A program made the position numbers and the translations under genes. From positions 7,750,001 to 7,814,000 of the forward strand of contig OZ024750.1 of NCBI GenBank assembly GCA_964016885.1: DNA of 64,000 nucleotides, in the 5' to 3' direction. This document shows positions 9,676-48,930 of this stretch, piece by piece. The notes below the pieces were generated by a model that was not told where the DNA came from, searched no databases, and worked only from the letters and a program-made list of their open reading frames with translations. Origin of the DNA: Eledone cirrhosa (Eukaryota). Each line of letters opens with the position of its first letter. Positions within the stretch are counted from its first letter, which is position 1.

Positions 9676-10064
9676 AGGAGGAAGTTATAGTTCACTTGAA
9701 GCATTGTGTAATGAGGTATACACGTTTGAATTTGTAAAGCCAAACAATGCAGGTATGGACATAGAATAAAAATGCAAATGCAAAAGATATTGTTGACAAT
9801 TAGTTTTTTATCTTAGATTTATTTAAATGTCCTTAATTTTCGTGATAATATCTCTTCTTCGGAGGGAAGTAAAGCGGTTAAACCGGTGTTCTAAATAACC
9901 TGCCAAGTCATGCTGACAGGAAATGGAAGAAGAGATATTATCTCGAAAATTAAGGACATTTAAATAAATCTAAGGTAAAAGACTAATTGTCAACAATATC
10001 TTTTGCATTTGCATTTTTATTCTATGTCCATACCTGCATTGTTTGGCTTTACAAATTCAAACGT
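9676..10064 (-). mobile_element. Family B fold-back PLE-like element
   Basis: Arms 9722-9860 and 9926-10064 (~139 bp, few mismatches), ~45-nt tail at 9676-9721, hammerhead at the inner arm ends, TA flanks. Confidence 0.85.
9831..9865 (-). ncRNA. Degenerate minimal hammerhead (family B paralog of 48768-48802)
   Basis: Same sequence as the 48768 motif but with CCGAAGA in place of CUGAAGA and one stem-II mismatch. Confidence 0.6.
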
Positions 10065-10109
10065 TTATATATATATATATTTATTTATTTAATTATAATG
10101 ATAATATAG

Positions 10110-10290
10110 AGTTTATACTTTTGGCACAAGGCCAGCGATTACTCCAGTGCATTACTGGTATTTTATTTTATTGACCCCATAAGGATGAAAGGCAAAGTTA
10201 ACCTCGGCGGATTTGAACTCAGAACACAAAGGGCCATAAATATGTTACAAAGCATGGTATCCGACGCTCTACCGATACTGCCAAACCACC
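10110..10290 (-). mobile_element. Same SINE family
   Basis: Reverse complement of the head, core and tail. Confidence 0.9.
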
Positions 10291-10436
10291 ATTCTGTAAT
10301 AATTATAATATACTAATTTAATAGCTCTGTACTATACATAGAGTACTCTTCTTTCCTTTACCTCTTCTACGGAAATACATAACGCACACGCACATATGTA
10401 TCTATATGTATATATATATATATACATACATACATA

Positions 10437-10581
10437 CGAGTGGCTTCTGCAAAATATCACTTACAAGGCATTGGTCAGTCAAAGACTATAGTATAGGGCA
10501 TTTCCCTCAGTGCTCCAGTATAGGACTGAAACAGAGTACACGTAGTTGCATTTCAAATTCCTTAACCTCACAGTAATGCCT
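10437..10581 (-). mobile_element. Diverged third SINE (CORE-like); relative at 38900-39070 (+)
   Basis: Degenerate tRNA head plus TACTATAG...GACCAATGCCTTGTAAGTG, recalled as an abundant octopus SINE. Confidence 0.5.
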
Positions 10582-10920
10582 ACAAACAAACATGTACCAC
10601 ACACCTAGTCACACTCACACACATACACATACAAACAAATATATAATTATATCAACTTACATTTGTAATATATTTATATTTCACGCACGCACGCACGCAC
10701 GCACGCACGCACGCACGCACCATGTTGATTGATCGAAGTAATCAATTAACTAATGTGTAAAGGTGTAGTCAACATAAGCACACTACGTCATGCGTATCCA
10801 TATGGTTTCACCTATATGGAGTCAGTGAGAATATCAATATTAAGTAGGAGAAAGAGAGACGGTTTTAAACATTCTACTTCACTTTATTGTCTTACATCAT
10901 ACCTGCTATATATATATATA

Positions 10921-45129: not shown

Positions 45130-45620
45130 TTGTCATCCATCCTCTTATTTTTTTGCTGATTGATTTGATCTCCTTTGAGGATAAATTGGAGATCTCTGTC
45201 GATGGAATCATTGTATATTTTGGTGTCAGGTGTCTAGGCTGCATGTAGATAACATTTTAGACTGGATACTTTAGGCTAGAATAAAAGTTATTATCTACGT
45301 AAGAATGGGTTTTGTAGAGCGTGAAGTCTAGTAGATCACTGTTGCATGTATGACAAGAAGAGTTGAAGACAGATCCGATTCATGGGGTTGCAAGATGTGA
45401 AAGTATGCGAGGAGCGCTTCATGAGCACAAACCACCATAATTCCACGGACTGAAAATTGATGACCCCACACATGAGAGACGAAGTTTGTATACTTAGAGT
45501 TCTGACAAGGGATCCCAGACACCAACAAACGTTTTGCTAATGTTGAAGATAACATTGTTTTCATCAAATTTGTCTAGGTGTGTAACATAGGAGAGAATGA
45601 CTCCAAGAGATCTGCACACA
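45130..45620 (-). mobile_element. Decayed CR1/Jockey-group LINE reverse-transcriptase fragment
   Basis: NISKTFVGVWD (DISKAFDRVWH-like), a degenerate PQGSVL region, and DLL...THSYVDN (YADD-like). Confidence 0.65.
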
Positions 45621-45745
45621 AGCCATGCTGGTCGTCGTAAAAGACTGAGGAAGCGTGAAGGAGGGAGAGAAAGAAAGAGGGAAGTAGGGCGAGTGAGAGA
45701 AAGACTCAAGGTGTTGGATAACGCCTCTATTATGGGCGGTGGATG

Positions 45746-45968
45746 CCGGTGGATTGGCAGTATCGGTAGAGGGTCGGACGCCATACTTTGCAGCATAGAG
45801 TTATGGCCTTTTATGATCTGAGTTCATTCAAATCCCACCGAGGTTAACTTTGCCTTTCATCCTTACGGGGTCGATAAGATAAAGTACCAGTAATCAACTG
45901 AGTTGATTTAATCGACTTTCCCCTCCCCCCGACATTGCTGGTCTTGTGCCTATATAAGGAACCATTAT
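45746..45968 (+). mobile_element. Same SINE family, full length
   Basis: Head, B-box, core and tail. Confidence 0.9.
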
Positions 45969-48605
45969 AATCTGTTTCCAAAATCTTTAGTATATTGGAA
46001 ATGAGAGCAACAGGACGATATTTGACAAGGTCAGAGGGAAGTTTTCAAATTCAGCGTGCTTTTAAAGATCAGTTTATATCAGTTTCGAGATGGAGGGATT
46101 GATGAGTACTGTGAGCATAAGGGACTCTTTCTGTAACGCATTGTTTGAGGATAAATGTTACTAAATTGAAGATAAATAACTGTAGTTGCTGTTAGAAAAT
46201 ATTGTCACTTGTTTCAAAATTGGATAAAGGTGAAGTGTTTATATTATAAGAGCACATTAAGCATCTGTTATGTACTGAATTATATTAACGAAGAATGGAA
46301 CTACTACTTATCTTTTTTTTACCGGAGAAATATGAAGGACACCATTGAGCTAGGGAGGATTTAAACATGGACACCCCCAGTAAAATTTCTTCACACTTTT
46401 CACGATAATGATAATCATCATTAATAAAGAAGATATCTAAATAAAAAGGCGTTGTTCTTCTTAATTAAAGTGGAATGTAATAGTTTAGCGCTCGTCCTTA
46501 ACAGACAACCTGGATGGAAAATCTAAGAGTAGGATTAGCTGTGTAAAATATTGAAATATATATATATATAAATATGTATATATATATATAAATATATATA
46601 TATAAATATATATATATATAAATATGTATATATATATATATATATACATATGTATATATATATATATGTATATATATATATATATATATAAATATGTATA
46701 TATATATATAAATATGTATATATATATATAAATATATATGTATATATATGTATATATATATATAAATATATATATATATATATATATATATAAATATATA
46801 TGTATATATATGTATATATATATATAAATATATATATATATATATAAATATATATATATATATATAAATATATATGTATATATATGTATATATATATATA
46901 AATATATATATATATATATAAATATATATATATATATATATATATATAAATATATATATATATATATATATAAATATATATATATATATATATATAAATA
47001 TATATGTATATATATGTATATATATATATAAATATATATGTATATATATGTATATATATATATAAATATATATATGTATATATATGTATATATATATATA
47101 AATATATATGTATATATATGTATATATATATATAAATATATATATGTATATATATATATAAATATATATGTATATATATGTATATATATATATAAATATA
47201 TATATATATATATATGTATATATATGTATATATATATATAAATATATATATATATATATATGCATATATATGTATATATATATATAAATATATATGTATA
47301 TATATGTATATATATATATAAATATATATATGTATATATATATATAAATATATATATATATATATAAATATATATATATATATATATATATATAAATATA
47401 TATATATATATATATATAAATATATATGTATATATATGTATATATATATATAAATATATATGTATATATATGTATATATATATATAAATATATATATGTA
47501 TATATATGTATATATATATATAAATATATATGTATATATATGTATATATATATATAAATATATATATGTATATATATATATAAATATATATGTATATATA
47601 TGTATATATATATATAAATATATATATATATATATATGTATATATATGTATATATATATATAAATATATATATATATATATATGTATATATATGTATATA
47701 TATATATAAATATATATATGTATATATATATAAATATATATATGTATATATATATATAAATATATATGTATATATATGTATATATATATATAAATATATA
47801 TATATATATATATATATATATATGTATATATATATATAAATATATATATATATGTATATATATGTATATATATATATAAATATATATATGTATATATATA
47901 TATAAATATATATGTATATATATGTATATATATATATAAATATATATATATATATATATATATATATATGTATATATATATATAAATATATATATATATA
48001 TATATATATGTATATATATATATAAATATATATATATATATATATATGTATATATATATATAAATATATATATATATATATATATATAAATATATATGTA
48101 TATATATATATAAATATATATATATAAATATATATGTATATATATATATAAATATATATATATAAATATATATATAAATATATATATATAAATATATATA
48201 TATATATATATATATAAATATATATGTATATATATATATAAATATATATATATAAATATATATGTATATATATATATAAATATATATATATAAATATATA
48301 TGTATATAAATATATATAAATATATATGTATATATATGTATATATATATATATATATAAATATATATGTATATATATGTATATATATATATATATATAAA
48401 TATATATGTATATATATGTATATATATATATATATATAAATATATATGTATATATATGTATATATATATATATATATATAAATATATATGTATATATATG
48501 TATATATATATATATATATAAATATATATGTATATATATGTATATATATATATATATATAAATATATATATATAAATATGTATATATATCTATATATATA
48601 TATAA

Positions 48606-48930
48606 AGGAGGAGGTTATAGTTCACTTGAAGCGTTGTGTAATGAGGTATAAAGGTTTGAATATGTATAATAAAGCCAAAACAATGCAGGTATGGACATAG
48701 AAAAAAGAATGCAATTGCAAAAGATATTGTTGACAATTCGTCTTTTACCTTAGATTTATTTAAATGTCCTTAATTTTCGAGATAATATCTCTTCTTCAGA
48801 GGGAAATAAAGGTCTCAAACCAGCGTTCTAACTAGCGTTTTAACTCTTTGACATTAGAGATAGAACAGATACTCGATACTATTTCCTGTCAGCATGGCTT
48901 GGCAAGCTAGTTAGAACGCTGGTTTGAGAC
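48606..48930 (-). mobile_element. Family B PLE-like element with 5' inversion
   Basis: Homologous to 9676-9925. The distal part is inverted, leaving a 25-bp IR at 48812-48836 and 48906-48930. It sits inside a TA-rich satellite. Confidence 0.85.
48768..48802 (-). ncRNA. Minimal type-I hammerhead motif (family B)
   Basis: Minus strand: CCU-CUGAAGA-A-GAGAU(AUU)AUCUC-GAAA-AU-UA-AGG, followed by AAUAAA. Stem III is the loop-less palindrome AAUU, like the minimal hammerheads described in PLEs. Confidence 0.75.

Follow-up and report, generated by a model that had tools for sequence, protein, structure and literature searches.

Hammerhead motifs in a 64-kb stretch of the Eledone cirrhosa genome are very probably end fragments of dispersed, mostly Penelope-like, elements

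Introduction

Hammerhead ribozymes in the pseudo-long terminal repeats (pLTRs) of Penelope-like elements (PLEs) are already published (PMC4209133, PMC8557442). Cervera and de la Pena described motifs occurring singly or as opposite-strand pairs separated by 100-700 bp, with cleavage confined to dimers (PMC4209133); monomers of this kind fail to cleave and dimers cleave weakly (PMC4209133; review PMC6765202). Here we analyse 64,000 nt of the Eledone cirrhosa genome (assembly GCA_964016885.1, contig OZ024750.1, positions 7,750,001 to 7,814,000; "the window"), in which a first-pass annotation had marked eight type-I hammerhead folds. We conclude with high confidence that these motifs are 5'-truncated, often inverted, pLTR end fragments of repeats, PLEs in seven of the nine families examined, that the hammerhead is likely to work only as a dimer, and that solo copies are likely inert.

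In the Hydra clade of PLEs, elements insert at (TA)n and always carry hammerheads, and Hydra-1_Obim is listed for Octopus bimaculoides (Craig et al., PMC8557442). For a lizard PLE, reverse transcription is described as starting internally, and cleavage as needing protein and being dispensable for insertion (PMC11167929). The role of cleavage in PLE mobility is called unclear by Craig et al. (PMC8557442), and cleavage is unnecessary in vitro according to Frangieh et al. Axolotl has about 120,000 retrozyme hammerheads (PMC7229834). As far as cephalopods are concerned, our literature search for hammerheads in octopus and cephalopods led to two sources only, Craig et al. and the paper on the giant squid genome, which gives 235 Rfam hammerheads.

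Results

The window is repeat-rich, AT-rich animal DNA from a 3.0-Gb genome. A strict type-I descriptor (intact CUGANGA, helix I of at least 3 bp, helix II of at least 4 bp, GAAA, helix III of at least 1 bp, UH) found six motifs, with cores at -48799, -35163, -27519, -14895, -12085 and +19590. Dinucleotide shuffles in 500-nt blocks (n=100) gave a mean of 0.11 and a maximum of 1, so the comparison with shuffled sequence that had been proposed favours real motifs; the reversed window gave none in the strict scan. With one core mismatch allowed, ten motifs were found versus a mean of 1.8 in 30 shuffles; given that average, some of these are chance matches, and the ten include the motif at 9831 and three likely chance matches.

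Each of the eight annotated coordinates marks the 3' end of helix I of a motif on the minus strand. The full type-I architecture (core CUGANGA...GAAA...UH, helices I-III, helix I open) is found at 12040, 14820, 27476, 35123, 48768 and +19590. An intact core together with a paired helix II base is lacking at 9831, 27237 and 34041 and in family U, all of which we class as hammerhead-like. Thus, five of the six folds annotated as complete pass the strict scan, while 34041 fails because its helix II base is unpaired; this copy has lost a pair that eight of nine family loci show. Of the two called degenerate, 9831 is indeed a decayed copy (U4C), whereas the changes at 27237 are family-wide and not decay of one copy. 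The annotation was right that 9831 and 48768 are paralogs, both belonging to family D, and that stem II differs in sequence between families. In none of the eight motifs does helix III form a stable hairpin; it is either palindromic or reduced to a stub of 1-3 bp, and a loop-free palindromic helix III is present in 17 of 25 family representatives.

Longer copies elsewhere in the genome connect most of these motifs to coding sequence. Searches with flanked motifs returned 814-2,845 first-look candidates per motif, and in each family all 40 candidates that were scored match. Examined by translation and tblastn, longer copies revealed a PLE-type reverse transcriptase (RT) and a GIY-YIG domain within one open reading frame (ORF) in families A, G, H, F, U, D and E, that is, in five of the seven families to which the annotated motifs belong and in two families that the annotation lacked. 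Full copies consist of hammerhead-pLTR, RT/GIY-YIG ORF, 3' untranslated region (UTR) and hammerhead-pLTR, and the window copies correspond to the last 0.15-0.8 kb. In one family A locus (L026), two identical hammerheads 4,465 nt apart flank an 829-codon open frame, in the order hammerhead, ORF with RT and C-terminal GIY-YIG, long 3' UTR, second hammerhead. A family G locus (L289) has the same layout and a protein 57% identical to that of family A. Direct hammerhead pLTRs also surround the ORF in L025 (A) and in L156 (D), where pLTRs at 1367-1719 and 4483-4834 accompany an inverted copy and a frameshifted ORF whose protein matches Pfam GIY-YIG (E 2.4e-6). An inverted copy precedes the ORF in L155 (H), L154 (F), L168 (E) and L029 (U); in L155 the ORF is followed by a 1.75-kb UTR, and L161-163 agree. 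Family E is represented by full or near-full copies at L204/L205 (near-duplicates), at L168 and at several further loci, in which the nuclease end lies about 0.35-0.45 kb upstream, and four family U loci (L029, L231, L092 and L308) have ORF-to-hammerhead DNA in common at about 91% identity. The best copies are 96-100% identical in family A, 94-97% in family G and 81-93% in family C. In the window itself, the family D ORF region starts directly after the cut site, the family D element at 48593-48936 interrupts a 4.5-kb TA-rich array (46556-51051), and 4603-4678 (+) is the 3' end of a Hydra-type PLE (family U).

Judged by eye, the families of 35123, 34041, 12040, 19590 and 4624 are Hydra-type, and those of 48768/9831 and 27237 belong to a canonical clade. 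The annotation had proposed independent retroelement families. They are separate and dispersed, and five of seven are linked to PLE ORFs, but full independence does not hold: they fall into two PLE groups, within which the 35123 and 34041 ORFs are 57% and the 48768 and 27237 ORFs 44-65% identical. Families A, G, H, F and U resemble the published Hydra clade (PMC8557442) in their C-terminal GIY-YIG, (TA)n targets and pLTR hammerhead, and the insertions do lie at (TA)n as described for that clade. By eye, the family A protein (P0001) shows DKT, MGS.D, CxCx5C, CxxC, CxH and a divergent RT4(B), and DKT and CxCx5C recur in family H; all of these are motifs given for the Hydra clade, with CxCx5C in the linker and CxxC and CxH in the endonuclease. 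Family A differs from that description in having RWR for RWK, and the elements differ in their long, T-rich 3' UTRs of about 1-1.9 kb. Families D and E share with the canonical clades with a C-terminal endonuclease (EN), Penelope/Poseidon and Nematis, the motifs DKG and GLPMGS (with YVDD in D), a Pfam GIY-YIG and a 5' UTR starting at the hammerhead. Their linker cysteine spacing fits neither group cleanly, the closest by eye being Nematis/PNL2_SM (Fig. S2 of PMC8557442). Membership of the Naiad clade (N-terminal EN, no canonical hammerhead) was rejected because the EN is C-terminal in all linked families, and a Neptune label for A, H and F was dropped on comparison with the Hydra description (PMC8557442). 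Separately, fragments at L164:2349-3881 (+) and L102:6735-7689 come from a third PLE type whose nuclease is like the Neptune rows of the same published figure.

As in the pLTR hammerheads of PMC4209133, the motifs are type I with a short helix I, an extra nucleotide at the helix II base and a palindromic helix III; a genome holds many families, solo copies predominate, and there are opposite-strand pairs as well as two copies around an RT/GIY-YIG ORF. Differences from that account are the number of motifs (about 2.8e5 strict motifs here versus about 9,000 in Xenopus and 4,000 in coelacanth, counted with a different descriptor), the many families without G10.1-C11.1, and the fixed U4A or U4A+A6U cores of two families.

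We next consider where copies end, with offsets estimated by reading aligned copies. Similarity among copies persists for about 25-180 nt past the cut site, where a microsatellite, mostly (TA)n, takes over; hence the copied RNA spans the cut site. Of 12 family A copies, one continues into the ORF and the other 11 end near +134. Two alternative 3' ends were seen in each of B, D, G and U: short (+56) in 3 of 12 and long (about +175) in 9 of 12 copies of family B; about +120 in five and +165 in five copies of family D, with one more running into the ORF; and about +50 in four and +145 in five of nine copies of family G. Such pairs of ends fit the internal initiation described in PMC11167929. In the seven families other than that of 27237, copies lack a poly(A) tail and stop at microsatellites, mostly (TA)n; (TA)4 lies within 200 nt downstream of 54 of 72 motifs sampled across the genome, compared with 26% of random sites. 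The annotation had placed a poly(A) signal close after the cut in most motifs. This is so in five of the eight (35123, 34041, 48768, 9831 and 27237), where A(A/T)TAAA starts 5-11 nt past the cut; at 12040 the hexamer straddles the cut, and 14820 and 27476 have none. The hexamer occurs within 30 nt past the cut in 7 of 25 family representatives versus 2.2 expected in shuffles (P=0.005), with control counts of 2 on the antisense strand and 1 at +31-60.

The annotation also implied that the motifs are locally concentrated. We therefore sampled the genome as 78 stretches of 10 kb at round coordinates on large contigs (780 kb, or 0.03% of the genome). This sample contained 72 strict motifs, whereas there were 0-1 in each of ten shuffles and none in the reversed sequence. 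The resulting density, 9.2 per 100 kb (bootstrap 6.0-12.8), matches that of the window (9.4 per 100 kb), and extrapolates to about 2.8e5 (1.8-3.8e5) strict motifs genome-wide, an estimate drawn from large contigs that tandem arrays raise and that misses weak-stem and altered-core forms. The sampled motifs, including those of the window, form at least 25 sequence clusters. At this density the probability of six or more strict motifs in 64 kb is 0.46, and 200 kb of flanks hold ten; accordingly, we rejected a local ribozyme cluster. In motif density the window is typical of its genome.

No coding parent was found for family B in 7 long loci or for family C in 18. The ORF of L029 was rejected as parent of family B since it belongs to family U, and that of L173 because an inverted B segment lies between the ORF and the pLTR; for family C, the L160 ORF was rejected because a U hammerhead follows it. 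Non-coding tandem units that each carry a type-I hammerhead were found, among the families of the window, in family B only: L157 holds six units about 530 nt apart, five of which pass the strict scan, and L017 holds direct pairs 532 nt apart. In this family B resembles the non-LTR retrozymes (PMC7229834; Li, Clavereau and Pollet 2026), from which it differs in unit length (530 nt, against a published range of 150-450 bp) and in that the window copies are solo. A separate family, seen at L108:8749-9682, L120 and L034:358-1288, consists of tandem units of about 310 nt, each with a type-I hammerhead whose helix III is the palindrome CGCG; it is a classic non-LTR retrozyme family and accounts for 11 of the 72 sampled motifs. 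Hammerhead families at L082, L048 and L145 have 60-nt branched helix II inserts, as family B has, so a long structured helix II recurs.

Two families carry altered cores. In family U, represented by 13 copies in the 780-kb sample, A stands at position 4 in 14,941 exact 35-base matches versus 152 with any other base, a U4A share of 99%. The fold at 4624 has a 3-bp helix II on a U-U base, a helix III of 4-5 bp and a long interrupted helix I, and the plus-strand CTGAAGA at 15253 is a product of the inverted-pair junction, without the 5' strand of helix I. In a survey of one-mismatch matches, U4A of family U was the sole variant recurring in a real family (7 of 24 matches; shuffles gave 9-14 matches). 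In family E, among 30 copies selected by a pattern leaving core positions 3-6 free, 19 have CAGUUGA (U4A, A6U), the others are single variants and none is canonical; this core has at least 192 exact matches, against 0 for the control. A U3-A8 register for family E was rejected because it breaks helix II, and the 30 loci, examined from 250 nt upstream to 200 nt downstream, contain no second CUGANGA. Among described variants, A6C has low and U4C reduced activity (Perreault et al., PMC3088659), and Cervera and de la Pena list U3-A8 (PMC4209133). A literature search for a U4A core found no paper, although figures or supplements of the cited papers may list one.

Table 1. Hammerhead-bearing elements and folds in the window.
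Feature	Position	Strand	Description
Family A	34990..35461	-	Young (96-100%) 3' UTR/pLTR stump of Hydra-type PLE, between (TA)n tracts
Family A hammerhead	35123-35166	-	Core 35163, N17 35126, GUC
Family G	33987..34181	-	pLTR stump of Hydra-type PLE
Family G hammerhead	34041-34085	-	Core 34082, N17 34044, helix II base unpaired
Family H	11974..12755	-	5'-truncated 3' UTR/pLTR of Hydra-type PLE
Family H hammerhead	12040-12092	-	Core 12085, N17 12047; (TA)n end about 55 nt past cut
Family F	19465..19791	+	Absent from first-pass annotation; Hydra-type ORF in one longer copy
Family F hammerhead	19582-19652	+	Core 19590, N17 19644; inverted 5' segment 19465-19552
Family D	48593..48936	-	pLTR; first PLE ORF-region codons 48769-48593; inverted segment 48838-48936
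Family D hammerhead	48768-48802	-	Minimal; core 48799, N17 48771
Family D, decayed copy	9660..10097	-	pLTR; PLE ORF-region start 9785-9591; + strand inverted segment 9926-10097
Family D hammerhead, decayed	9831-9865	-	U4C, damaged helix II
Family E	27060..27458	-	Canonical-clade PLE pLTR; inverted segment 27354-27458
Family E hammerhead-like fold	27237-27270	-	CAGUUGA at 27267, perfect 4-bp helix II, N17 27240
Family U hammerhead-like fold	4603..4678	+	CAGAAGA (U4A) at 4624, N17 4664; outside the annotated span
Family U inverted pair	15186..15430	.	Head-to-head; junction within ribozyme core; U4A core -15255
Family B	14763..14969	-	No ORF link found
Family B hammerhead	14820-14899	-	Core 14895, N17 14824, branched 51-nt helix II, 10-nt palindromic helix III
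Family C	27423..27563	-	Short, older copy (81-93% to relatives); no ORF link found
Family C hammerhead	27476-27525	-	Core 27519, N17 27482

Discussion

Published work on PLEs suggests how such fragments could arise. In a partial tandem, the upstream pLTR would drive transcription of the parent element; two hammerheads would then pair through their helix III palindromes and trim the precursor RNA, probably aided by protein. The GIY-YIG domain would nick a (TA)n target, and reverse transcription, using an uncut template, would begin at an internal site of the RNA about 25-180 nt downstream of the ribozyme. Where copying stopped early or switched template, short and inverted stumps would result, which would retain the ribozyme because it adjoins the start of copying. 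Solo stumps have no partner on the same strand and are likely inert.

We considered whether the motifs might instead be chance matches in AT-rich DNA. The relaxed scan, in which part of the matches are attributable to chance, and the absence of any hit to Rfam hammerhead models at gathering score, a negative outcome for the scan with these models that had been proposed, would be in keeping with this; minimal forms of the hammerhead are, however, expected to fall below the Rfam gathering threshold. The strict counts in window, sample and reversed sequence speak strongly the other way, as does the recurrence of the motif at the same pLTR position across unrelated elements, and chance as a general explanation can practically be dismissed. 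A selected ribozyme cluster regulating a host transcript is very improbable. Strict motifs in the window and its flanks (L070-L089, 264 kb) are skewed towards one strand, 12 minus versus 4 plus (P=0.077), which could reflect an overlapping host intron. Against regulation, motif density equals the genome background, every copy is one among many near-identical insertions, and the 150 longest of 185 non-simple frames of at least 50 aa have no Pfam match and thus give no Pfam-detected exon, a result with which an intron is still compatible. The annotation's own proposal was that in each family a hammerhead cut and a poly(A) signal just downstream end the RNA and set the element boundary. Cleavage follows a poly(A) signal at a spacing of 10-30 nt. 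The hexamer enrichment, its presence in five of the eight motifs and the short family G ends (about +49), near where a signal at +5 could act, are what such a module would produce; however, 18 of 25 representatives have no hexamer, and in families H and F it spans the cut, partly forced by pairing with the U-rich helix I. Insertions moreover retain the cut site, reach +134 (A), +120/+165 (D), +50/+145 (G) and +56/+175 (B), and stop at (TA)n with no A tail, and in family U the short end (about +26) directly follows the hexamer, which leaves too little distance for cleavage directed by a signal. The lizard PLE account describes no reads ending at the cut site and cleavage unneeded in vitro (PMC11167929). 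We regard an end-defining module as improbable. As part of our overall reading, and with the same high confidence, we take the AATAAA-like hexamer to be an accessory that some families carry. In certain families it may act as a genuine signal, or it may belong to the AU-rich stretch meeting the (TA)n target.

The strongest competitor applies to families B and C and some solo copies, which might be non-autonomous non-LTR retrozymes, that is, short tandem units excised by two hammerheads, circularised and copied in trans by a PLE enzyme. The tandem B arrays of L157 and L017, the commonness of the 310-nt tandem family (L108, L120, L034) and published descriptions of pLTR-derived retrozymes (bioRxiv 10.64898/2026.07.22.740005; PMC7229834) make this possible. 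Family B, however, has PLE-stump inverted pairs and the two-end pattern, so its parent ORF may be unsampled; no tandem copies of family C were found; and the explanation is inapplicable to A, D, E, F, G, H and U. On balance we lean somewhat away from it. Several results weigh against the PLE reading. Neither the family A protein P0001 nor two other Hydra-type pieces had a Pfam match, no PLE name appeared in a homolog search among the matches listed (120 of 142), and the clade labels are based on motifs read by eye. A contiguous ORF was found in none of 7 long family B loci and an ORF link in none of 18 long family C loci, and the link for family F comes from a single locus, L154. Several family E copies end in A-rich runs, possibly poly(A). 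The dimer step may not apply to family U, with its real helix III of 4-5 bp, and ribozyme cutting and element transcription are predicted from sequence.

As first posed, the observation has little significance: the pairing of hammerheads with PLEs is known, and the density is ordinary for this genome. It may matter more that standard Rfam annotation misses perhaps 300,000 ribozyme-like motifs, an estimate that exceeds the roughly 120,000 of axolotl, though descriptors differ and the two are not strictly comparable. We suggest, tentatively and leaning slightly against rather than for, that this is the densest hammerhead load reported (about 3e5, in dozens of PLE families) and that two unrelated families have spread with rewired cores. 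To the same tentative degree, either U4A functions as a natural core, with the stable helix III and the long helix I assisting it, or PLEs with crippled ribozymes attain copy numbers in the tens of thousands. If true, either outcome would bear on the debated purpose of PLE hammerheads. A natural comparison for the role of cleavage in mobility is offered by sister families whose cores are canonical in some and altered in others, part of them with intact ORFs.

Some further observations concern the folds and their surroundings. Single-motif minimum-free-energy folding made the outer helices clear only for families C and D; such folds are uninformative for dimer ribozymes. Other CTGANGA sites in the window (6078, 11849, 21776, 44185 and 57044) had no relatives among the loci compared outside it; the one at 11849 (+), CTGATGA, may be a truncated hammerhead, with a hairpin behind it that reaches a microsatellite without an intervening GAAA. 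Splice-donor-like GTAA sites and pyrimidine-rich DNA lie about 15-25 nt past the cuts at 14824, 27240 and 48771 (-), in families B, E and D; introns in PLE 5' UTRs are mentioned in PMC8557442.

An Rfam E-value search of the window was dominated by miRNA models on microsatellites (among the matches listed, 150 of 377), and a repeat search by simple repeats. At least ten copies of a dispersed repeat of 120-300 nt, probably a short interspersed nuclear element (83-96% identical to L027:710-836), lie at 25654, 25851, 41052, 52232, 57379, 38482, 6452, 36816, 10227 and 29845. At 59067-59519 (-) there is a 151-aa frame without a Pfam match, which we take to resemble the C-terminal end of an RTE-type long interspersed nuclear element protein.

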